A stretch of DNA of 9,688 nt, taken from positions 1-9,688 of IMG/VR virus record IMGVR_UViG_2541047758_000002. One strand, 5' to 3'. The notes under the pieces were generated by a model, which did no database searches, was not told the DNA's origin, and saw only the letters and a program-made list of their open reading frames with translations. The DNA is from a virus. Its lineage: Duplodnaviria > Heunggongvirae > Uroviricota > Caudoviricetes. The translations under genes were made by a program, and so were the position numbers. Positions within the stretch are counted from its first letter, which is position 1, and each line of letters opens with the position of its first letter. Shown here piece after piece: positions 1-9,688 of this stretch.

Positions 1-117
1 GAAGAAACCCGGAAAGACGGTAAGAAAATTGATTATCCGGCGCGTCCTCTGCTCGGCTTTACCGGTGAGGATGTGCAGATGATTGAAGAGATTATTCTGG
101 CGCACCTCGACCGTTAG
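1..117 (+). CDS. S: 3' end of tail completion protein (P2 gpS-like); partial, 5' end lies outside the window
   Basis: Frame 1 is open from position 1 to TAG at 115..117 (translation ...GFTGEDVQMIEEIILAHLDR*). It sits directly upstream of the V homolog, as S does in P2. Identity rests mainly on synteny. Confidence 0.55.
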   Translation, partial: EETRKDGKKIDYPARPLLGFTGEDVQMIEEIILAHLDR

Positions 118-136
118 TTGTGCCATTCCCGACACC
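118..136 (+). promoter_or_regulatory. Candidate late-promoter activator site (Ogr/Delta-type) upstream of V
   Basis: TTGTGCCATTCCCGACACC lies between the S stop and the V start, with TGT at 119..121 and ACA at 132..134 (ten intervening bases by my count). A related motif lies upstream of FI. P2 late promoters carry a TGT-N12-ACA dyad near -55. Confidence 0.3.
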
Positions 137-149
137 TCATCGTCACATT

Positions 150-171
150 GCCGCCGGTATGACCCGGCGGC
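150..171 (+). other. Perfect 8-bp stem / 6-nt loop hairpin in the S-V intergenic region
   Basis: GCCGCCGG-tatgac-CCGGCGGC; not followed by a T-run. Confidence 0.3.
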
Positions 172-183
172 ATCCTTCCCGTT

Positions 184-819
184 ATGAACACTCTCGCAAA
201 TATCCAGGAACTCGCGCGCGCACTGCGCAACATGATTCGCACCGGCCTTGTCGTCGAAACCGACCTTAACGCCGGTCGCTGCCGTGTGCAGACCGGCGGC
301 ATGTGCACCGACTGGCTTCAGTGGCTGACCCATCGCGCCGGGCGTTCGCGCACATGGTGGGCACCTTCCGTGGGGGAGCAGGTGCTGATTCTGGCCGTGG
401 GCGGTGAACTTGACACGGCGTTTGTTCTGCCGGGGATTTATTCCGGCGATAACCCCGCGCCGTCTGCGTCGGCGGATGCCCTGCATATCCGTTTCCCTGA
501 CGGGGCGGTGATTGAGTATGAACCTGAAACCAGTGCACTGACGGTAAGCGGAATTAAAACGGCCAGCGTGACGGCTTCTGATTCTGTTACTGCCACGGTG
601 CCGGTGGTCATGGTGAAAGCGTCAACCCGCATCACCCTGGACACACCGGAGGTGGTCTGCACCAACAGGCTGATTACCGGCACGCTGGAAGTACAGAAGG
701 GCGGGACGATGCGCGGCAATATTGAACACACCGGCGGTGAACTCTCATCAAACGGTAAGGTACTGCATACCCATAAACACCCCGGCGACAGCGGCGGCAC
801 AACCGGGAGTCCTCTATGA
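184..819 (+). CDS. V: Baseplate central spike / baseplate assembly protein V (P2 gpV-like)
   Basis: 211-aa ORF, the same length as P2 gpV; the translation (MNTLANIQELARALRNM...HTHKHPGDSGGTTGSPL) matches what I recall of gpV. Stop overlaps the next start (ATGA at 816..819). Confidence 0.9.
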   Translation: MNTLANIQELARALRNMIRTGLVVETDLNAGRCRVQTGGMCTDWLQWLTHRAGRSRTWWAPSVGEQVLILAVGGELDTAFVLPGIYSGDNPAPSASADALHIRFPDGAVIEYEPETSALTVSGIKTASVTASDSVTATVPVVMVKASTRITLDTPEVVCTNRLITGTLEVQKGGTMRGNIEHTGGELSSNGKVLHTHKHPGDSGGTTGSPL

Positions 820-1163
820 CAGCGCGTTATCTTGGAATGAATCGCAGTGATGGCCTGACTGTCACTGACCTTGAGCATATCAGCCAGAGTATCGGCGATA
901 TCCTGCGCACGCCGGTCGGCTCACGGGTGATGCGTCGTGATTACGGCTCATTGCTGGCGTCAATGATTGACCAGCCGCAGACCCCGGCGCTTGAGTTGCA
1001 GATTAAGGTCGCCTGTTACATGGCGGTGCTGAAATGGGAACCCCGCGTCACCCTGTCATCCGTCACCACTGAGCGCAGTTTTGACGGGCGAATGACGGTC
1101 ACGTTAACCGGCCAGCACAACGACACCGGCCAGCCACTTTCGTTAACCATCCCTGTGAGTTGA
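816..1163 (+). CDS. W: Baseplate wedge protein W (P2 gpW-like, T4 gp25 family)
   Basis: 115-aa ORF, the same length as P2 gpW, with its start overlapping the V stop in an ATGA motif; position in the V-W-J-I order. Confidence 0.88.
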   Translation: MTARYLGMNRSDGLTVTDLEHISQSIGDILRTPVGSRVMRRDYGSLLASMIDQPQTPALELQIKVACYMAVLKWEPRVTLSSVTTERSFDGRMTVTLTGQHNDTGQPLSLTIPVS

Positions 1164-1167
1164 AACC

Positions 1168-2076
1168 ATGCCGATTATCGACCTGAACCAGCTACCCGCA
1201 CCGGATGTGGTCGAGGAGCTGGACTTTGAAACCATTCTTGCCGAACGCAAGGCGACACTGATTTCCCTTTACCCGGAAGACCAGCAGGAGGCGGTTGCCC
1301 GTACCCTGACGCTGGAATCCGAGCCTCTCGTCAAACTGCTGGAGGAAAATGCTTATCGTGAGCTTATCTGGCGTCAGCGTGTGAATGAGGCCGCACGGGC
1401 GGTAATGCTGGCCTGTGCCGCCGGTAATGACCTTGATGTGATTGGTGCCAATTACAACACCACGCGCCTGACTATCACCCCGGCAGACGATTCGACCATC
1501 CCGCCGACACCGGCAGTGATGGAATCTGACACCGATTATCGGCTGCGTATTCAGCAGGCGTTTGAAGGTTTAAGCGTTGCCGGGTCGGTGGGTGCCTATC
1601 AGTATCATGGTCGCAGTGCCGACGGGCGCGTCGCAGATATCTCTGTCACCAGTCCGTCTCCGGCCTGCGTCACCATCTCCGTGCTGTCACGTGAAAATAA
1701 CGGTGTCGCATCCGAAGACCTGCTGGCCGTGGTGCGTAACGCCCTTAATGGCGAGGATGTCAGGCCGGTGGCCGACCGCGTGACCGTGCAGTCTGCCGCC
1801 ATTGTTGAATATCAGATAAACGCCACGCTTTACCTTTACCCAGGTCCCGAAAGCGAACCCATCCGCGCTGCTGCCGTGAAAAAACTGGAAGCGTACATCA
1901 CGGCACAGCACCGGCTTGGGCGCGACATCCGTCTGTCTGCCATTTATGCCGCTTTGCATGTGGAAGGCGTGCAGCGTGTCGAACTGACTGCACCTCTGGC
2001 TGACATCGTGCTCAACAGTACGCAGGCGTCTTTCTGTACTGAATACCGCGTCGTGACCGGAGGCTCGGATGAGTGA
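1168..2076 (+). CDS. J: Baseplate assembly protein J (P2 gpJ-like)
   Basis: 302-aa ORF, the same length as P2 gpJ; begins 5 nt after the W stop; synteny. Confidence 0.9.
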   Translation: MPIIDLNQLPAPDVVEELDFETILAERKATLISLYPEDQQEAVARTLTLESEPLVKLLEENAYRELIWRQRVNEAARAVMLACAAGNDLDVIGANYNTTRLTITPADDSTIPPTPAVMESDTDYRLRIQQAFEGLSVAGSVGAYQYHGRSADGRVADISVTSPSPACVTISVLSRENNGVASEDLLAVVRNALNGEDVRPVADRVTVQSAAIVEYQINATLYLYPGPESEPIRAAAVKKLEAYITAQHRLGRDIRLSAIYAALHVEGVQRVELTAPLADIVLNSTQASFCTEYRVVTGGSDE

Positions 2077-2680
2077 TTCGCGCCTGCTGCCGACCGGCTC
2101 ATCACCGCTTGAAGTTGCCGCCGCAAAAGCCTGTGCGGAAATTGAAAAAACGCCGGTCAGTATTCGTGAGCTGTGGAACCCGGACACCTGCCCGGCAAAT
2201 CTGCTGCCGTGGCTGGCGTGGTCATTTTCGGTCGACAGGTGGGATGATAAATGGCCGGAAGCGACCAAACGCGCTGTTATCCGCGATGCGTATTTCATTC
2301 ACTGCCATAAGGGCACTATTGGTGCGATTCGCCGTGTGGTGGAGCCGCTCGGCTATCTGATTGAGGTGAGGGAGTGGTGGCAGCTCAACGAGGAGCCGGG
2401 GACGTTCCGCATCGTTGTTGGCGTGCTTGAGCAGGGTATTACCGAGGAAATGTATCAGGAGCTGGAGCGTCTCGTTGCTGATGCAAAACCTGCAAGCCGC
2501 CATCTGACGGGACTGGCTATCAGTTTAAGTACAACCGGCAACATTTTTGCCGGTGCGGGATGCTATCACGGCGACGCCCTGACGGTTTATCCCTACACCC
2601 CGGAGGCCATTATTGTCGGAGGGGATTATTTCCCGGCCTCGGCCATTCATTTAATTGATAACCTGAGAGTAAACGCATGA
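2069..2680 (+). CDS. I: Baseplate/tail protein I (P2 gpI-like)
   Basis: 203-aa ORF whose ATG at 2069 overlaps the J stop (ATGAGTGA); synteny between J and the tail fibre gene. The start is uncertain because I recall P2 gpI as shorter, but no in-frame internal ATG lies near the expected position. Confidence 0.82.
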   Translation: MSDSRLLPTGSSPLEVAAAKACAEIEKTPVSIRELWNPDTCPANLLPWLAWSFSVDRWDDKWPEATKRAVIRDAYFIHCHKGTIGAIRRVVEPLGYLIEVREWWQLNEEPGTFRIVVGVLEQGITEEMYQELERLVADAKPASRHLTGLAISLSTTGNIFAGAGCYHGDALTVYPYTPEAIIVGGDYFPASAIHLIDNLRVNA

Positions 2681-3957
2681 CAGTGAAATACTACGCCATT
2701 CTGACTAATCAGGGCGCAGCACGGCTGGCTAACGCGACGATGCTCGGCAGTAAGCTGAATCTGACGCAAATGGCCGTTGGTGATGCGAATGGTGTCTTGC
2801 CGACACCAGACCCGGCACAGACAAAACTGATTAACCAGAAACGCATTGCACCGCTGAATCTTCTGAGTGTTGACCCGAATAACCAGAGCCAGATTATTGC
2901 GGAGCAAATCATCCCTGAGAACGAGGGCGGATTCTGGATCCGTGAGATTGGGCTTTATGATGATGAAGGCGTACTCATTGCGGTGGCGAACTGCCCGGAA
3001 ACGTACAAACCGCAGTTGCAGGAAGGCAGCGGTCGTACCCAGACTATCCGCATGATTCTGGTTGTCACGAATACCGAAGCTATCACGCTGAAAATCGACC
3101 CGTCGGTGGTACTGGCGACCCGTAAATACGTGGATGATGAAGTCCTGGAATTAAGGCTGTATGTGGATGACCAGATGAGAAACCATATTGCCGCACAGGA
3201 TCCTCATACCCAGTATGCACAGAAACATAATCCGACATTTACCGGAGAACCAAAAGCGCCGACGCCTGCTGCAGGAAATAACACCACGCGGATTGCGACC
3301 ACTGCGTTTGTTCAGGCGGTTATTACCGCTCTGATTAACGGTGCGCCTGCCACGCTGGATACACTGAAAGAAATTGCCGCAGCCATTAACAATGACCCGA
3401 AATTCAGCACCACCATTAACAATGCGCTGGCAGGTAAACAACCGCTGGACAATACGCTGACTAATTTGAGTGGAAAGGATGTAGCTGGTCTTCTCACATA
3501 CCTTGGAATAGGAGAAACGGGAAAATACGACATTCTGCCAGCATCAAGAGGAGGCACTGGAGCGTCAACTATAGCCGGAGCATTGATAAACTTTGGTCTG
3601 AGTGATTTAGTGACTGCCGGATTAGTACAGGTGGAATCTGGTACAGACTTTATTACTGCTAAGATTCCATTTCTGTCCGGTGGTAGAAAGCGATTCCTGA
3701 TGATACATGCCATCAAGGCGACAATGCCTGCAAATAATAACGGGTATAACCTTACTGTTACATTCCCAACTGCCTATGATAATGCACCGATACCAATTCT
3801 TGGCTCGACCGTAGGGTCGACTTCAACAACGGGTGGTACCACAGAGTCAATGAATATTTCATCAGTCACAAAATCGGGTTGCATCATTTCTTCAGCATGG
3901 CAAACATGGTCTGAGGGACCGGTATATCTTTTAACGATTGGAGGAGTTGCAGCATGA
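2677..3957 (+). CDS. H: Tail fibre protein (P2 gpH-like): constant N-terminal part to about 3503, variable C-terminal part 3505..3957 inside the invertible segment
   Basis: 426-aa ORF with start overlapping the I stop (ATGA). The N-terminus (MTVKYYAILTNQGAARLANA...) is the conserved fibre N-terminal domain shared by P2 H and Mu S-type fibres. The C-terminal third is AT-richer and begins at a hix/gix-like site. Confidence 0.9.
   Translation: MTVKYYAILTNQGAARLANATMLGSKLNLTQMAVGDANGVLPTPDPAQTKLINQKRIAPLNLLSVDPNNQSQIIAEQIIPENEGGFWIREIGLYDDEGVLIAVANCPETYKPQLQEGSGRTQTIRMILVVTNTEAITLKIDPSVVLATRKYVDDEVLELRLYVDDQMRNHIAAQDPHTQYAQKHNPTFTGEPKAPTPAAGNNTTRIATTAFVQAVITALINGAPATLDTLKEIAAAINNDPKFSTTINNALAGKQPLDNTLTNLSGKDVAGLLTYLGIGETGKYDILPASRGGTGASTIAGALINFGLSDLVTAGLVQVESGTDFITAKIPFLSGGRKRFLMIHAIKATMPANNNGYNLTVTFPTAYDNAPIPILGSTVGSTSTTGGTTESMNISSVTKSGCIISSAWQTWSEGPVYLLTIGGVAA
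3491..3516. repeat. Left crossover site of the invertible segment (hix/gix/cix-like 26-bp site), inside the H coding sequence
   Basis: TTCTCACATACC-TT-GGAATAGGAGAA. It matches the reverse complement of the right site (TTTTCTTAAACG-TT-GGTTTAGGAGAA) at 18 of 26 positions, 12 of 14 in the half that lies inside the segment. It has the 12-2-12 architecture of Hin-family recombination sites. Confidence 0.65.
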
Positions 3958-4340
3958 AATATTATTCACCTTCAATTAATGGATTTCCCGAACAAAAGAC
4001 TGATGACAGTATTGAGATCAGTGAAGAGGTCTGGAGAATACTTCTTAGTGAAATTTACTCAGGCCGGGAGTTATTTAACGATGGCGGCGTACCCGCTACC
4101 CGTGTGCCGCAACCTACGCAAGAACAAGTAATTGCAGCCGCAGAAAATGAGCGCCAACGATTGCTGAATTATGCTGATACCGTAATGCTCGACTGGCGTA
4201 CAGAATTGATGCTGGGTGAAATCAGCGACGCCAACAGGGCTAAATTGTCGGCGTGGCTGGCTTATAAAAATCAAGTTAAGTCGGTTGATGTGACAACTGA
4301 CCCTGAGCATGTTAACTGGCCTATTTCCCCGGAGGCGTAG
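3954..4340 (+). CDS. Tail fibre assembly chaperone (P2 gpG / Mu U / Tfa family) for the currently expressed fibre tip
   Basis: 128-aa ORF with start overlapping the H stop (ATGA). Sits immediately downstream of the fibre gene; the C-terminal region (...EHVNWPISPEA) resembles Tfa proteins. Confidence 0.8.
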   Translation: MKYYSPSINGFPEQKTDDSIEISEEVWRILLSEIYSGRELFNDGGVPATRVPQPTQEQVIAAAENERQRLLNYADTVMLDWRTELMLGEISDANRAKLSAWLAYKNQVKSVDVTTDPEHVNWPISPEA

Positions 4341-4752
4341 GCCATTCAATATCTGGCGCACCGGAAGTATCGACCAGTTCCAGTGCGTCCAGATAATCCA
4401 GCCACGAATTATATTGCGCCAGTTCCTCTCCTTTCAGACGACCAATCGCCGCTTTACCAGGCCATTGCTTACTGTTTATGTATTCGTTGACCTGATTAAT
4501 CAATTGCTGCTTTTCCAGTTCGGCTGCGGCAATTTGTTCCTCATGAGTTGGCGGTGGAATATCAATCCATGCTGGCATTCCGTCGATGACACCTCTGTAT
4601 TTTCCTTCTGGTGCTTCCTTCATAAATTCGGCGGCAACAGTGTCGTCAATTTCGATTCCATCATCGGGCCATTCGCCGGATTCCTGATAAGCGATTTTAA
4701 GCTCCACAGGGAAAAACGCATTTTTCTCGGCACTGAAAATATATTTCTGCAT
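4321..4752 (-). CDS. Alternative tail fibre assembly chaperone (Mu U'-like), partner of the silent fibre cassette
   Basis: 143-aa ORF on the - strand, starting 2 nt after the stop of the silent fibre cassette. The C-terminus (...DIEWPTPPGK) is Tfa-like. Its 3' end overlaps the + strand chaperone gene by 20 nt. Confidence 0.8.
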   Translation of the reverse strand: MQKYIFSAEKNAFFPVELKIAYQESGEWPDDGIEIDDTVAAEFMKEAPEGKYRGVIDGMPAWIDIPPPTHEEQIAAAELEKQQLINQVNEYINSKQWPGKAAIGRLKGEELAQYNSWLDYLDALELVDTSGAPDIEWPTPPGK

Positions 4753-4754
4753 TT

Positions 4755-5111
4755 CTACCGTCCTATCGAAATATAACTGAATCTGTATTGCTGTGAGATA
4801 TCACTGGTTGCCACACGCCACGCTGAATTACTGATATGTTCAAAATTTACAGACAAAACCTGCGGGGCAGGATTCGACGGGTCTGACTGAACGGCATCAG
4901 ACATAACACTGACTGAAACCATCGGCTGATTAGGGAATGGTATAGGGAAGTGTCCACTGATAAAGCGGGTCGTGTTTCCTGAAAAAGTGCCAAACTGAAC
5001 AATATATCCACCTGGTAGCCTGAACCATCCCGAACCAGAAGCGAATGCTCCCATATCAGGTATCTGATTATCTCCTGTGCCCACATCCCTTTTCGCCGCT
5101 TCTCCTAAACC
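4755..5111 (-). CDS. Silent alternative tail-fibre C-terminal cassette (Mu S'v-like); lacks its own start and would be expressed only after inversion fuses it to the constant part of H
   Basis: - strand reading frame open from the right crossover site to TAG at 4757..4755. Its first codons after the crossover core (GLGEAAK...) parallel the H codons after the left core (GIGETGK...). Frame arithmetic shows an in-frame fusion after inversion. Confidence 0.7.
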   Translation of the reverse strand, partial: GLGEAAKRDVGTGDNQIPDMGAFASGSGWFRLPGGYIVQFGTFSGNTTRFISGHFPIPFPNQPMVSVSVMSDAVQSDPSNPAPQVLSVNFEHISNSAWRVATSDISQQYRFSYISIGR

Positions 5112-5125
5112 AACGTTTAAGAAAA
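5100..5125. repeat. Right crossover site of the invertible segment (hix/gix/cix-like)
   Basis: TTCTCCTAAACC-AA-CGTTTAAGAAAA. Close to the Hin-family half-site consensus TTxTCxxAAACC with a 2-bp AA core, inverted relative to the left site (core TT on the + strand). Lies 55 bp upstream of the invertase start. Confidence 0.7.
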
Positions 5126-5180
5126 TGCAGAGGTAACAGCTAACTGGCATCATCCCCGGTTTTTATTCAGGGGGATAATC

Positions 5181-5774
5181 ATGCTTATTGGCTATGTACG
5201 CGTGTCAACAAATGACCAGAACACGGAATTGCAGCGTAACGCGCTGGAGTGTGCAGGATGTGAGCTGATTTTTGAGGATAAAATCAGCGGCACGAAGTCC
5301 GACAGGCCGGGACTGAAAAAACTGCTCAGAACATTATCAGCAGGTGACACTCTGGTGGTCTGGAAGCTGGACAGGCTGGGGCGTAGTATGCGGCATCTGG
5401 TCATTCTGGTTGAGGAACTGCGCGAACGCGGCGTTAATTTTCGCAGCCTGACGGATGCTATTGATACCAGCACGCCGATGGGGCGTTTTTTCTTTCATGT
5501 GATGGGTGCCCTGGCTGAAATGGAGCGAGAACTCATTGTCGAGCGGACACGCGCCGGACTGGAAGCGGCCAGAGCCAAAGGTCGTATTGGTGGCGGACGA
5601 CCGAAACTCACTGCGGGTGAGTGGGAGCAGGTCGGACGGTTGCTGGCTGCGGGGGAATCTCGTCAACGTGTGGCGCTGATTTTTGATATTGGTCTGTCCA
5701 CGCTCTATAAAAAATTCCCCTCATCAGCGACAAAGAATAAATTGTGTCATCCCTTAGCCAACCGGGACAAATAG
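5181..5774 (+). CDS. Site-specific serine DNA invertase (Hin/Gin/Cin/Pin family resolvase-invertase)
   Basis: 197-aa ORF; N-terminus MLIGYVRVSTNDQNTELQRNAL... carries the serine-recombinase catalytic motif (YVRVST) and the ...DRLGRS... region; C-terminal helix-turn-helix (...GLSTLYKKFP). Shine-Dalgarno GGGGGA lies 5 nt upstream. Adjacent to the invertible segment. Confidence 0.92.
   Translation: MLIGYVRVSTNDQNTELQRNALECAGCELIFEDKISGTKSDRPGLKKLLRTLSAGDTLVVWKLDRLGRSMRHLVILVEELRERGVNFRSLTDAIDTSTPMGRFFFHVMGALAEMERELIVERTRAGLEAARAKGRIGGGRPKLTAGEWEQVGRLLAAGESRQRVALIFDIGLSTLYKKFPSSATKNKLCHPLANRDK
5742..5763 (+). promoter_or_regulatory. Candidate late-promoter activator site upstream of FI, overlapping the 3' end of the invertase gene
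   Basis: TTGTGTCATCCCTTAGCCAACC about 90 nt upstream of the FI start; shares TTGTG-CAT-CC with the motif upstream of V. Confidence 0.3.
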
Positions 5775-5833
5775 CCTGACATCTCCGGCACAACTGAAAA
5801 TACCACTCACCCATTAACCACGGAGTTAAACGG

Positions 5834-7024
5834 ATGAGTGACTATCATCACGGCGTGCAGGTGCTGGAGATTAACGACGGCACCCGCGTCATTTCCACCG
5901 TATCCACTGCCATTGTTGGCATGGTCTGCACGGCCAGCGATGCGGATGCGGAAACCTTCCCCCTCAATAAACCGGTGCTGATTACCAATGTGCAGAGCGC
6001 AATTGCAAAGGCCGGTAAAAAAGGCACGCTGGCGGCATCGTTGCAGGCCATCGCCGACCAGTCAAAACCGGTCACCGTTGTCGTGCGTGTGGAAGACGGC
6101 ACCGGCGACGACGAGGAAACGAAACTCGCGCAGACCGTTTCCAATATCATCGGCACCACCGACGAAAACGGTCAGTACACCGGACTGAAAGCCCTGCTGG
6201 CGGCGGAGTCGGTAACCGGTGTTAAACCGCGTATTCTCGGCGTGCCGGGACTGGACACCAAAGAGGTGGCGGTTGCACTGGCATCAGTATGTCAGAAGCT
6301 GCGCGCTTTCGGGTATATCAGCGCATGGGGCTGTAAAACCATTTCCGAGGTGAAAGCCTACCGCCAGAATTTCAGCCAGCGTGAGCTGATGGTCATCTGG
6401 CCGGATTTCCTCGCATGGGATACGGTCACCAGTACCACCGCCACCGCGTATGCCACTGCCCGTGCACTGGGCCTGCGCGCTAAAATCGACCAGGAGCAGG
6501 GCTGGCATAAAACGCTGTCCAATGTCGGGGTGAACGGTGTTACCGGCATCAGCGCATCTGTATTCTGGGATTTGCAGGAGTCCGGCACCGATGCTGACCT
6601 GCTTAACGAGTCAGGCGTCACAACGCTGATTCGCCGTGACGGTTTCCGCTTCTGGGGTAACCGTACCTGTTCTGATGACCCGCTGTTCCTCTTTGAAAAC
6701 TACACCCGCACCGCGCAGGTGCTGGCCGATACGATGGCTGAGGCGCACATGTGGGCGGTGGACAAGCCCATCACCGCAACGCTGATTCGCGACATCGTTG
6801 ACGGCATCAATGCCAAATTCCGTGAGCTGAAAACAAACGGCTATATCGTGGATGCGACCTGCTGGTTCAGCGAAGAATCCAACGATGCGGAAACCCTTAA
6901 GGCCGGAAAACTGTATATCGACTACGACTATACCCCGGTGCCTCCTCTTGAAAACCTGACCCTGCGCCAGCGTATTACCGATAAATACCTGGCAAATCTG
7001 GTCACCTCGGTTAACAGCAATTAA
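5834..7024 (+). CDS. FI: Contractile tail sheath protein (P2 gpFI-like)
   Basis: 396-aa ORF, the same length as P2 FI; GGAG ribosome-binding site upstream; followed by the tube gene. Confidence 0.92.
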   Translation: MSDYHHGVQVLEINDGTRVISTVSTAIVGMVCTASDADAETFPLNKPVLITNVQSAIAKAGKKGTLAASLQAIADQSKPVTVVVRVEDGTGDDEETKLAQTVSNIIGTTDENGQYTGLKALLAAESVTGVKPRILGVPGLDTKEVAVALASVCQKLRAFGYISAWGCKTISEVKAYRQNFSQRELMVIWPDFLAWDTVTSTTATAYATARALGLRAKIDQEQGWHKTLSNVGVNGVTGISASVFWDLQESGTDADLLNESGVTTLIRRDGFRFWGNRTCSDDPLFLFENYTRTAQVLADTMAEAHMWAVDKPITATLIRDIVDGINAKFRELKTNGYIVDATCWFSEESNDAETLKAGKLYIDYDYTPVPPLENLTLRQRITDKYLANLVTSVNSN

Positions 7025-7036
7025 GGAGCCTGACCG

Positions 7037-7555
7037 ATGGCAATGCCGCGCAAACTCAAGTTAATGAACGTCTTTCTGAACGGCTACAGCTATCAGGGCG
7101 TTGCAAAGTCCGTCACGCTGCCAAAACTGACCCGTAAGCTCGAAAACTATCGCGGTGCGGGGATGAACGGCAGCGCACCGGTAGACCTCGGCCTTGATGA
7201 CGATGCGCTGTCAATGGAGTGGTCGCTCGGGGGCTTCCCGGATTCGGTTATCTGGGAGCTTTACGCCGCAACCGGTGTGGATGCCGTGCCGATTCGTTTT
7301 GCAGGCTCTTACCAGCGCGACGATACCGGCGAAACGGTGGCCGTCGAAGTGGTCATGCGTGGGCGTCAGAAAGAAGTCGACACCGGCGAGGGTAAACAGG
7401 GAGAAGATACCGAGTCGAAAATCTCCGTGGTCTGCACCTATTTCCGGCTGACGATGGACGGTAAGGGGCTGGTCGAAATTGACACCATCAACATGATTGA
7501 GAAGGTGAACGGCGTCGACCGGCTGGAGCAACACCGCCGCAATATCGGCCTGTGA
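7037..7555 (+). CDS. FII: Tail tube protein (P2 gpFII-like)
   Basis: 172-aa ORF, the same length as P2 FII; strong AGGAG ribosome-binding site at about 7024..7028; synteny after the sheath gene. Confidence 0.92.
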   Translation: MAMPRKLKLMNVFLNGYSYQGVAKSVTLPKLTRKLENYRGAGMNGSAPVDLGLDDDALSMEWSLGGFPDSVIWELYAATGVDAVPIRFAGSYQRDDTGETVAVEVVMRGRQKEVDTGEGKQGEDTESKISVVCTYFRLTMDGKGLVEIDTINMIEKVNGVDRLEQHRRNIGL

Positions 7556-7562
7556 TTTTCAT

Positions 7563-7583
7563 CCGGTCAGCCAGGCTGACCGG
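7563..7583 (+). other. Perfect 9-bp stem / 3-nt loop hairpin in the FII-E intergenic region
   Basis: CCGGTCAGC-cag-GCTGACCGG, 8 nt after the FII stop; followed only by TT. Confidence 0.3.
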
Positions 7584-7611
7584 TTAACCCCGATTCAGAA
7601 GTGAGAAAACC

Positions 7612-7887
7612 ATGAACAAAGAAAATGTCATTACCCTGGACAATCCGGTCAAACGTGGTGAGCAGGTTATCGAACAGGTCACGCTGATGAAACCCAATGC
7701 CGGGACGCTGCGCGGTGTCAGTCTGGCTGCGGTTGCAAACTCCGAAGTCGATGCACTGATTAAGGTGCTGCCGCGCATGACGGCACCGATGCTGACCGAG
7801 CAGGAAGTCGCCGCGCTGGAACTGCCTGACCTTGTGGCGCTGGCCGGTAAGGTGGTCGGTTTTTTGTCGCCGAACTCGGTGCAGTGA
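7612..7887 (+). CDS. E: Tail assembly chaperone E (P2 gpE-like), zero-frame product
   Basis: 91-aa ORF, the same length as P2 gpE, between the tube and tape measure genes; contains the TTTTTTG slippery site near its 3' end. Confidence 0.88.
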   Translation: MNKENVITLDNPVKRGEQVIEQVTLMKPNAGTLRGVSLAAVANSEVDALIKVLPRMTAPMLTEQEVAALELPDLVALAGKVVGFLSPNSVQ

Positions 7888-8039
7888 CGTTTCCAAAAAA
7901 TCTCTCGGTCGATGACCTGATGGCGGATGTGGCAGTGATATTTCACTGGCCGCCATCAGAACTGTATCCCATGAGCCTGACCGAACTCAACACATGGCGC
8001 GAAAAGGCGCTCCGGCGAAGCGGAAACACGAATGAGTAA
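7612..8039 (+). CDS. E: Tail assembly chaperone E+E' made by programmed -1 ribosomal frameshift at 7860..7866
   Basis: The -1 frame downstream of the slippery heptamer is open to TAA at 8037..8039 (...VTFPKNLSVDDLMADVAVIFHWPPSELYPMSLTELNTWREKALRRSGNTNE*). The fusion would be about 142 aa, matching P2 gpE+E'. Confidence 0.75.
7860..7866 (+). promoter_or_regulatory. Slippery heptamer T-TTT-TTG for the -1 frameshift producing E+E'
   Basis: Sequence ttttttg read directly; same heptamer class as used by P2 E/E' and lambda G/GT. Confidence 0.7.
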
Positions 8040-9688
8040 CAATGTAAAATTACAGGTATTGCTCAGGGCTGTTGACCAGGCATCCCGCCCGTTTAAATCC
8101 ATCCGCACAGCGAGTAAGTCGCTGTCGGGGGATATCCGGGAAACACAAAAATCACTGCGCGAGCTGAACGGTCACGCATCCCGTATTGAGGGATTTCGCA
8201 AGACCAGTGCACAGCTCGCCGTGACTGGTCATGCACTTGAAAAGGCACGGCAGGAGGCCGAAGCCCTTGCCACACAGTTTAAAAATACCGAACGACCGAC
8301 CCGTGCTCAGGCGAAAGTGCTGGAATCCGCAAAGCGTGCGGTGGAGGACTTACAGGCGAAATATAACCGCCTGACGGATTCCGTTAAACGCCAGCAGCGG
8401 GAACTGGCCGCTGTGGGAATTAATACCCGCAATCTTGCACATGATGAGCAGGGACTGAAAAAACGTATCAGTGAAACCACCGCACAACTTAACCGTCAGC
8501 GCGACGCGCTGGCGCGTGTCAGTGCGCAACAGGCAAAACTTAACGCAGTAAAACAGCGTTATCAGGCCGGAAAGGAACTGGCCGGAAATATGGCCTCAGT
8601 AGGCGCTGCCGGTGTGGGGATTGCGGCGGCGGGAACGATGGCCGGAGTTAAGTTACTGATGCCCGGTTATGAGTTTGCGCAGAAAAACTCAGAATTGCAG
8701 GCCGTGCTCGGAGTGGCAAAAGACTCCGCCGAAATGACCGCACTACGCAAGCAGGCGCGCCAGCTTGGCGACAACACCGCCGCCTCGGCGGATGATGCAG
8801 CCGGTGCGCAGATTATCATTGCGAAAGCCGGCGGGGATGTTGATGCCATTCAGGCGGCAACGCCGGTCACGCTGAATATGGCGCTGGCGAACCGTCGCAC
8901 GATGGAAGAAAACGCCGCCCTGTTGATGGGGATGAAATCCGCCTTTCAGCTTTCAAACGATAAGGTCGCTCATATCGGGGATGTTCTCTCCATGACGATG
9001 AACAAAACCGCCGCCGATTTTGACGGCATGAGCGATGCGCTGACCTATGCCGCACCTGTGGCAAAAAATGCCGGTGTCAGCATTGAAGAAACCGCCGCAA
9101 TGGTCGGGGCGCTGCATGATGCAAAAATTACCGGTTCAATGGCGGGGACGGGAAGCCGTGCCGTGTTAAGCCGTCTGCAGGCACCGACGGGAAAAGCATG
9201 GGATGCACTGAAAGAGCTTGGTGTGAAAACCTCAGACAGCAAGGGAAACACCCGGCCAATATTTACCATTCTGAAAGAAATGCAGGCCAGTTTTGAGAAA
9301 AACCGGCTCGGTACTGCCCAGCAGGCTGAATACATGAAAACTATTTTCGGGGAGGAGGCCAGCTCAGCCGCCGCCGTGCTGATGACTGCCGCCTCAACCG
9401 GAAAGCTGGACAAACTGACCGCTGCGTTTAAAGCCTCGGACGGGAAGACCGCCGAGCTGGTAAATATCATGCAGGACAACCTCGGCGGTGACTTTAAAGA
9501 GTTTCAGTCCGCTTATGAGGCGGTGGGGACTGACCTGTTTGACCAGCAGGAAGGCGCACTGCGTAATCTCACACAGACGGCCACAAAGTATGTGTTAAAA
9601 CTCGATGGCTGGATCCAGAAAAACAAATCACTGGCGTCAACCATCGGCCTCATTGCCGGTGGCGCACTGGCGCTTACTGGCATCATCG
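8032..9688 (+). CDS. T: Tail tape measure protein (P2 gpT-like), N-terminal 552 codons; continues past the window end
   Basis: ATG at 8032 inside the E' stop (AATGAGTAA). The frame stays open to the window end (MSNNVKLQVLLRAVDQASRPFK...). Coiled-coil-like, Ala/Gln-rich composition typical of tape measure proteins; synteny after E/E'. Confidence 0.9.
   Translation, partial: MSNNVKLQVLLRAVDQASRPFKSIRTASKSLSGDIRETQKSLRELNGHASRIEGFRKTSAQLAVTGHALEKARQEAEALATQFKNTERPTRAQAKVLESAKRAVEDLQAKYNRLTDSVKRQQRELAAVGINTRNLAHDEQGLKKRISETTAQLNRQRDALARVSAQQAKLNAVKQRYQAGKELAGNMASVGAAGVGIAAAGTMAGVKLLMPGYEFAQKNSELQAVLGVAKDSAEMTALRKQARQLGDNTAASADDAAGAQIIIAKAGGDVDAIQAATPVTLNMALANRRTMEENAALLMGMKSAFQLSNDKVAHIGDVLSMTMNKTAADFDGMSDALTYAAPVAKNAGVSIEETAAMVGALHDAKITGSMAGTGSRAVLSRLQAPTGKAWDALKELGVKTSDSKGNTRPIFTILKEMQASFEKNRLGTAQQAEYMKTIFGEEASSAAAVLMTAASTGKLDKLTAAFKASDGKTAELVNIMQDNLGGDFKEFQSAYEAVGTDLFDQQEGALRNLTQTATKYVLKLDGWIQKNKSLASTIGLIAGGALALTGII

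Follow-up and report, generated by a model that had tools for sequence, protein, structure and literature searches.

Organisation of the locus

The stretch analysed here, hereafter the window, comprises 9,688 nucleotides of a virus of the Caudoviricetes (IMG/VR record IMGVR_UViG_2541047758_000002, positions 1 to 9,688), and its subject is the tail fibre locus, where an AT-rich tract at about 3440-5160 overlaps a predicted invertible segment. The window carries the late genes of a Peduovirus in the order V-W-J-I-H ... FI-FII-E-T, as identified by Pfam, and outside positions 2506-5741 it shares 95-98% nucleotide identity with P2, fiAA91-ss and MET_P1_103_31; megablast assigned its flanks to Peduovirus at 95-97%. 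The fibre gene H, two convergent tfa genes, a second fibre tip on the opposite strand and a serine recombinase gene lie between baseplate gene I and sheath gene FI (Table 1). Judged from this sequence organisation, the locus appears to be an invertible fibre switch of the Gin/Cin/Pin type in a Peduovirus late operon; every feature looked for in a switch of the Din family was found, apart from the Fis enhancer.

Table 1. Genes, sites and blocks of the window
Feature	Position	Strand	Evidence and remarks
Baseplate gene V	184-819	+	Open reading frame (ORF), Pfam
W	816-1163	+	ORF, Pfam
J	1168-2076	+	ORF, Pfam
Baseplate gene I	2069-2680	+	ORF, Pfam
Block of intermediate GC (guanine plus cytosine) content: C-terminal part of I and constant N-terminal part of H	2506-3490	+	GC 0.513
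Tail fibre gene H, 426 amino acids (aa) as currently oriented (constant part and tip A)	2677-3957	+	Pfam Phage_tail_fib N-terminal collar domain, E=2e-62
Left 26-bp crossover site	3491-3516	+	TTCTCACATACC TT GGAATAGGAGAA; core dinucleotide 3503-3504
Half-cassette A: tip A (to 3957) and tfaA	3517-4328	+	
tfaA, Tfa chaperone, 128 aa	3954-4340	+	Caudo_TAP, E=1e-19
tfaB, second Tfa chaperone, 143 aa	4321-4752	-	Caudo_TAP, E=1e-34
Half-cassette B	4329-5118		
ORF with gp53-like fibre tip (tip B)	4755-5153	-	Pfam Gp53-like_C
Tip B, silent, promoterless	4755-5113	-	Gp53-like_C, E=3e-9; predicted fusion to constant part of H after inversion
Right 26-bp crossover site	5100-5125	+	TTCTCCTAAACC AA CGTTTAAGAAAA; core dinucleotide 5112-5113
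Serine recombinase with helix-turn-helix, 197 aa	5181-5774	+	Pfam Resolvase, HTH_7
Sheath gene FI	5834-7024	+	ORF, Pfam
Tube gene FII	7037-7555	+	ORF, Pfam

Crossover sites and inversion

The two crossover sites, sought as a pair of 12-bp half-sites flanking an identical 2-bp core, lie in inverted orientation, match at 19 of 26 positions and have the core TT/AA. All ten related switch-bearing loci had two, and no more than two, inverted sites of 26 bp with the core AA, and the same scan found no crossover site in P2 and fiAA91-ss, which have no invertase. Inversion of positions 3503-5113 in silico keeps H in frame and yields a protein of 394 aa (H') that ends in tip B, with tfaB beginning 2 nt past its stop codon. 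The same arrangement is annotated in Escherichia coli GPEC1222 (L011), the backbone of which is 96.7-96.9% identical to the window; positions 4329-5116 are inverted there, H is exactly 394 aa long and tfaB follows it. The predicted flipped junction was found in 47 complete E. coli genomes. Both orientations are therefore natural for half-cassette B on the same backbone.

In the proposed mechanism the serine invertase would recombine the inverted sites and flip about 1.6 kb of DNA holding two convergent units, each composed of a fibre tip and its own Tfa chaperone. The constant part of H, joined to tip A in the present orientation, would acquire an in-frame fusion with tip B in the other, so that a virion would bear either the one receptor specificity or the other. 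Operation of the switch could thus change the host range.

The invertase matches Resolvase (E=3e-52) and HTH_7 (E=4e-11), and its residues 1-182 match the structure of Mu Gin (3uj3, E=1.5e-92), with about three quarters of the residues identical as counted by eye from the printed alignment. Invertases of the Din family are small serine recombinases with the active-site Ser near residue 9-10 of an N-terminal catalytic domain and a C-terminal helix-turn-helix; the catalytic-serine motif is present here (YVRVSTNDQ; MLIGYVRVSTNDQ), and this protein is the putative catalyst of the inversion. In gin, hin and cin, the enhancer bound by Fis is located within the 5' part of the gene. By analogy, a Fis-dependent enhancer would be expected in the same part of the present gene, and inversion may depend on both Fis and the enhancer.

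A terminator-like hairpin followed by a T-run is located at 5142-5168, between the right crossover site and the start codon of the invertase gene, and could insulate this gene from transcription leaving the segment.

Base composition

Inspection of the sequence alone had suggested that the region from about 3440 to 5160 is more AT-rich than the genes on either side, and calculation bears this out: GC content is 0.460 in the tract (46.0%) versus 0.558 in the remaining window (55.8%; Fisher p=1.1e-13), with 0.563 on the left side and 0.555 on the right. The lowest-GC window of 1721 nt in the entire sequence starts at 3449, and in 2000 shuffles of 50-nt blocks the minimum for a window of this size never fell below 0.482. 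GC content at third codon positions (GC3) is 0.34-0.44 in the four cassette ORFs versus 0.60-0.70 in V, W, J, I, FI and FII. Codon usage, for which the sequence-only reading had recommended codon-adaptation plots, points the same way: the Karlin codon bias of the pooled cassette genes relative to the backbone is 0.557, against a null of 0.241 +/- 0.030 whose highest value over 1000 resamplings was 0.333. Because of these Fisher, block-shuffle, GC3 and codon-bias results the AT-rich tract is real, and chance is excluded. The difference is mainly synonymous, and amino-acid composition cannot explain the GC3 gap. Half-cassette A taken separately has a GC content of 0.45-0.46 and the same GC3 range of 0.34-0.44, while GC at second codon positions (GC2) is high in tip A, at 0.55.

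The same reading had placed the compositional breaks near the two crossover sites. The location of the tract agrees with this, but sharp edges at the sites were not found. The maximum-likelihood changepoints of a two-break model fall at 2640 (support within 2 log-likelihood (lnL) units, 2480-3360) and 5340 (support 5180-5500); this three-segment description gains 34.6 lnL units and has the best Bayesian information criterion (BIC). The profile is best described as a staircase of 0.58, then 0.51 from about 2505-2640, 0.46 from about 3360-3500 and 0.56 from about 5340, in which the 0.51 step covers the last part of gene I plus the constant portion of H. The extra step at about 3360-3500 improves the fit by only 3 lnL units, and the two-break model is the one favoured by BIC. 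Across the left crossover site GC content changes modestly, from 0.514 to 0.450 (p=0.012), as it does across the right one, from 0.463 to 0.530 (p=0.024), and in 300-nt windows the edges are gradual.

The low-GC tract extends about 160 nt into the invertase gene, where GC content is 0.481 in the first 160 nt versus 0.551 beyond. The first 160 nt were GC-poorer than the remainder in all ten invertase genes compared (including those of L001, L003-L008, L011 and L012), so that a low-GC start is a trait of this gene family.

Mosaic structure

The mosaic was mapped by local BLAST and by identities in sliding windows of 100 nt. Homology to fiAA91-ss is confined to positions 1-2505 and 5742-9688, at 95-98% identity. 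P2 gives the same boundaries and the same identity, although its left match begins at 1876, since the P2 locus compared starts inside gene J. Relative to these two phages, everything from the C-terminal part of gene I through the end of the invertase gene is replaced. Homology to the Peduovirus MET_P1_103_31 covers 1-3516, ending at the edge of the left crossover site, and resumes at 4329-9688.

The nearest neighbours of the segment differ from those of the flanks; identical ones would, according to the sequence-only reading, have refuted the idea of exchange. The proposal that the segment is a horizontally acquired host-range cassette exchanged between phages is supported by the finding of near-identical modules in unrelated backbones, and the partners can be specified as P2-like phages, e14-like phages with a Mu-type baseplate, P1-like phages and a fourth type of myovirus. 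Of the partners named in the sequence-only reading, the lambdoid ones are, as true siphoviruses, represented only by short patches. The link to true lambdoid siphoviruses is thin, consisting of a 64-nt patch at the 3' end of tfa (HK97, HK106) and a short protein similarity (63% identity over 49 aa with phi80 and mEp237). A nucleotide search with the segment gave no matches in Mu itself.

A single exchanged cassette was considered and rejected, as the neighbour sets of its two halves are disjoint. Half-cassettes A and B never share a partner set and therefore assort independently. The invertase gene shows a third pattern, with 98% identity to MET_P1_103_31, 83-95% to an e14-like prophage and 68-77% to a Gemsvirus. 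By these alignments the locus comprises two half-cassettes and an invertase gene, each with its own history.

Half-cassette B is 98-100% identical in four other hosts, the backbones of which are about 66-70% identical to the window or unalignable. These are Gemsvirus 500465-2, with baseplate genes at most about 70-84% identical to those of the window; the Klebsiella P2-like contig KP12_3, with a backbone 66-69% identical; phage SKA5 (98.6%), which has a Mu-type baseplate (homologues of Mup42-47) and lambdoid-type early genes; and a P1-like IncY phage-plasmid (98.8%). The homology to SKA5 ends at 5118, within the right crossover site. Tip B is a member of the Gp53-like_C family (PF21882), scoring 37.7-38.1 bits against a gathering threshold of 24.9 bits.

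Half-cassette B and an invertase gene occupy positions 6001-7277 of CP098993.1 (L012, an IncY plasmid), and E. coli, Salmonella and Enterobacter harbour P1-like phage-plasmids with the same pair of elements. Altogether 136 plasmid records match the segment in some part. Plasmid prophages therefore belong to the exchange network.

Half-cassette A is rare, being present in three of 5426 complete E. coli genomes. In none of the 5426 genomes does colinear coverage of the window in one place exceed 92%, and the missing 8% is half-cassette A. It is 98-100% identical in three of the loci compared (L006, L007 and L008), which include an e14-like prophage with a Mu-type baseplate, where homology begins at 3492, in the first bases of the left site, and a second P2-like lineage (strains C2 and DETEC-S566) with backbones 66-69% identical to the window. 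A 91% copy adjoins an invertase gene in L019, the fourth myovirus type. Since such cassettes are near-identical across backbones that are 66% identical or unalignable, the transfers must be recent relative to the divergence of the backbones.

A protein search with tip A (3505-3957) yielded no more than 15 clusters; their sources were E. coli, E. fergusonii and Salmonella, and identity was 97% or higher in nearly all of them. No tblastn match to half-cassette A or its tip was obtained in 50,697 phage records, and a scan of 185,579 species-representative genomes with a back-translated pattern of tip A found none. Against PF21882 tip A scores 19.6 bits (E=0.0014), below the gathering threshold; it is not a member of Gp53-like_C, though it may be distantly related. 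Tip A is the one mildly unusual element of the locus, being rare and having no detectable relative in the phage collection. The start codon of tfaA overlaps the stop codon of H as ATGA, suggesting translational coupling.

With its 128 codons tfaA is short; sister phages have tfa genes of 197-200 aa at the equivalent position, and tfaA matches phrog_188 from profile position 45 only.

The block at 2506-3432, which encodes the C-terminal part of gpI together with the N-terminal part of H, has no counterpart in P2 or fiAA91-ss and is 94-98% identical in Gemsvirus 500465-2. By these matches it is a separate mosaic module. Its high identity in Gemsvirus, as against the diverged baseplate genes there, suggests that gpI's C-terminal domain and the fibre attachment domain are swapped jointly.

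Joints of the exchanged modules

The crossover sites are chimeric across the loci compared (L001-L012): the 12-bp inner half-site depends on the tip, the outer half-site on the backbone. The inner half-site is TTCTCCTATTCC for tip A and TTCTCC(C/T)AAACC for other tips. Outer half-sites are GGTATG(C/T)GAGAA in the P2-type H, GGTTTTCGAGAG in the e14-like stf, GGTAATCAAGAA in the P1-like S and CGTTTA(A/T)GAAAA on the invertase side (CCTTTCAAATAT in SKA5). Since inner half-sites move along with their tips and outer ones stay with the backbone, homology between unrelated backbones breaks off no more than a few bases from the core dinucleotide. Next to the left site, on its upstream side, a linker of about 90 bp (3420-3516) is nearly invariant in DNA sequence among P2-like fibre genes, even across genera, and encodes roughly AGKQPLDNTLTNLSGKDVAGLLTYLG. 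This linker is likely to serve as a patch of homologous recombination for tip swaps.

The inner joint, at about 4329, is the meeting point of the convergent tfa genes. Both tfaA and tfaB have the conserved C-terminal domain and variable N-terminal domain of the Tfa/Caudo_TAP family (PF02413), the conserved domain of tfaB being its C-terminal half (about 4321-4577). DNA matches of the tfa genes in other lineages are restricted to C-terminal coding parts: positions 4329-4392 of tfaB share 98.4% over 64 nt with tfa of HK97 and HK106, a C-terminal part shares 85% over 183 nt with SEN34, and positions 4329-4577 share 85% over 249 nt with P2 T22, which bears another tip. This restriction agrees with the published domain structure of Tfa, in which a variable N-domain binds the fibre and the C-domain is conserved (PMC9608196).

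The unit of exchange would accordingly consist of a tip and the N-domain of its Tfa chaperone, bracketed on the outer side by the crossover site with the conserved fibre linker and on the inner side by conserved DNA for the Tfa C-domain. These bracketing patches are likely to be the points of recombination; the route of transfer is inferred. The crossover sites might additionally act as junctions at which tips pass from one phage to an unrelated one, by rare recombination events between molecules, catalysed by the invertases, in cells that hold two switch-bearing elements. The position of the boundary near the 2-bp core in every comparison of unrelated backbones and the specificity of the half-sites support this idea. 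However, short-homology recombination within the conserved site and linker accounts for the same pattern just as well, and an exchange mediated by the invertase cannot account for the inner junction, which lies at about 4329 and has no crossover site; we regard it as rather unlikely.

Origin of the AT-rich tract

Very probably the AT-rich tract is the receptor-recognition end of the fibre locus of a P2-like prophage, arranged as an invertible switch of horizontally shared modules. Its composition and anatomy, the in-frame alternative fibre, the presence of both orientations in natural genomes and the mosaic distribution were computed directly. The tips and chaperones would have no shared history with the tail and baseplate genes of P2 and would belong to a pool of interchangeable modules with about 46% GC (GC3 0.34-0.44), passed around almost without change between temperate phages whose backbones are unrelated. 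The recipient tail modules, of P2 type and Mu type, stand at 56-58% GC, and the staircase follows the nested blocks of backbone, I-C/H-N module, cassettes, invertase gene and again backbone.

The breakpoint is thus a contrast between this module pool and unusually GC-rich tail modules, and is owed as much to the latter as to the cassette. An e14-like prophage shows a similar staircase, with 56-58% in the Mu-type baseplate, 49% in stf, 46% in tfa and 50% in pin. The same cassettes match the composition of their surroundings, with no dip, both in L019 (41-52% GC) and in the P1-like plasmid (44-52% GC locally); the plasmids have no compositional anomaly because their backbone is at 44-52%.

Several observations weigh against this interpretation. 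Relatives of P2 without a switch have a dip that is equal or deeper: GC content is 50.5% in H, 43.8% in G and 32.8% in fun(Z) of P2, and 49.9% in H, 44.9% in G and 33.1% in orf20 of fiAA91-ss, and it returns to 56-57% in the sheath gene FI that follows. The dip was considered as a mark of the switch and rejected on this ground, and composition is consequently uninformative on the switch itself. The support intervals of the two-break model exclude the crossover positions 3503 and 5113. GC content at first codon positions (GC1) is 0.46-0.48 in the tips versus 0.56-0.67 in the backbone. In 5100-5500 the Fis-consensus pattern GNNYRNNWNNYRNNC matched at two isolated places but at no pair of places 48 bp apart, and a relaxed scan gave one such pair (5380/5428), no better than chance. 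Finally, a profile of synonymous conservation across six invertase genes, searched for an embedded cis element, had no clear peak.

Some of these observations could be accommodated if low GC were a by-product of the type of protein encoded, with beta-rich tips and small chaperones requiring residues that lower GC and perhaps slow codons. A dip is present in every fibre/tfa region examined, switch-less P2 and fiAA91-ss included, and the reduced GC1 of the tips suggests that amino-acid composition contributes a little. However, the signal is mostly in third positions, and GC2 of tip A is high. Transfer is directly evidenced by the recurrence of this very DNA (98-99% identity) in backbones that either cannot be aligned or share about 66% identity, and in backbones of 41-52% GC the cassettes have local GC content. 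An effect of protein type is therefore improbable as the cause of the tract.

Selection of AT-richness for the switch or its control, through DNA flexibility for looping, sites for Fis or HU, or silencing by H-NS in the lysogen, is less probable still. It would fit the GC-poor start of all ten invertase genes and a synonymous-codon identity across six of them that is 0.55-0.76 over nt 1-200, slightly more than the 0.39-0.48 over nt 200-300. It is opposed by the dip in P2 and fiAA91-ss, which have no switch, by the lack of a canonical 48-bp pair of Fis-consensus matches in the 5' part of the invertase gene and by a conservation profile with no clear peak, and it would explain about 160 nt at best, not 1.7 kb. 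That the dip is an ordinary random fluctuation along a phage genome, in favour of which nothing speaks but the gradual edges, can be dismissed in view of the Fisher test, the block shuffles (0 of 2000) and the gain of the three-segment model.

Comparison with known systems

The classical invertible fibre segments of the Gin family are the G segment of Mu, the C segment of P1, the P segment of e14 and Min of p15B. The locus resembles the Mu G segment in that the gene for a serine invertase, here matching Gin, lies just outside the invertible segment, in that the constant part of the fibre is located outside and two convergent units of tip and chaperone inside (as annotated in Mu), and in the 26-bp inverted sites with a 2-bp core. 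It differs in its size of about 1.6 kb, versus about 3 kb in Mu, in its P2-type backbone, in having no nucleotide match to the Mu segment and in its tips, which are short gp53-like domains.

Among relatives of the e14 P segment and its invertase PinE, a prophage of strain USMARC-49610 has an alignment that begins inside the left site (3492) and ends inside the invertase gene (5719), with half-cassette A at 98-100% identity and the remaining alignment of the invertible segment and invertase gene at 64-98% (100-nt windows). Half-cassette B of SKA5 and the staircase against a 56-58% baseplate, described above, add to the likeness. The constant part of the fibre, the outer half-site (GGTTTTCGAGAG vs GGTATGTGAGAA) and the whole tail backbone are unrelated. 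In the IncY plasmids, which carry a counterpart of the P1 C segment and Cin, half-cassette B together with part of the invertase gene is 92% identical overall, and the crossover site on the invertase side is identical to that of the window. Unlike the window, these P1-like plasmids have another constant region of the fibre, and their replicon is a plasmid prophage.

The locus shares its position in the late operon with the H-G region and the Z/fun hotspot of P2, with backbones 95-98% identical on both sides and low GC content in P2 too. The Z/fun hotspot lies between G and FI, where relatives of P2 carry unrelated AT-rich genes; in agreement with this, the alignments with P2 and fiAA91-ss start again at 5742-5754, a short way upstream of FI, and the slot upstream of FI holds fun(Z) in P2 and orf20 in fiAA91-ss, both of 33% GC. 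Unlike the window, P2 has a single fixed fibre gene and neither an invertase nor a crossover site. P2 fibre genes have reportedly been transferred horizontally among unrelated phages, a claim said to be made in the title of a 1992 paper by Haggard-Ljungquist and co-workers. Swaps of fibre/tfa (receptor-binding protein) genes at the Z/fun hotspot of P2-like phages, often accompanied by a DNA invertase and inverted neighbours, have been described (bioRxiv 10.1101/2024.10.15.618418), and phase-variable inversions have been measured in P2-like prophages of E. coli (PMC4272514).

Phage mosaicism of this kind is well documented, and the present case is clear but ordinary; current understanding is unchanged by these results. 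The locus provides a worked example of the trade in receptor-recognition modules among enterobacterial temperate phages, with three nested mosaic layers within 9.7 kb, each with its own base composition, and the compositional dip marks the difference between module pool and recipient backbone rather than the switch. The conserved brackets, that is the crossover site with its linker and the Tfa C-domain, define points at which tips could be swapped for the retargeting of P2-type phages or tailocins, and tip A, as a rare and uncharacterised receptor-binding tip, could be tried for this purpose.

Other features of the window

The window is 100% identical to part of scaffold KE699873.1 of NCBI assembly GCA_000457655.1. 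An Rfam scan of the window returned no families at threshold. Positions 7612-8039 contain the E gene (7612-7887) followed by an overlapping ORF of 51 aa in a different frame (7884-8039), which is the layout of the programmed -1 frameshift E/E' annotated in P2. On the source scaffold a second copy of bases 1-95 of the window is present at 1718-1812, 105 bp upstream, and this tandem duplication seems to have divided the tail-completion gene S, giving products of 143 and 38 aa.

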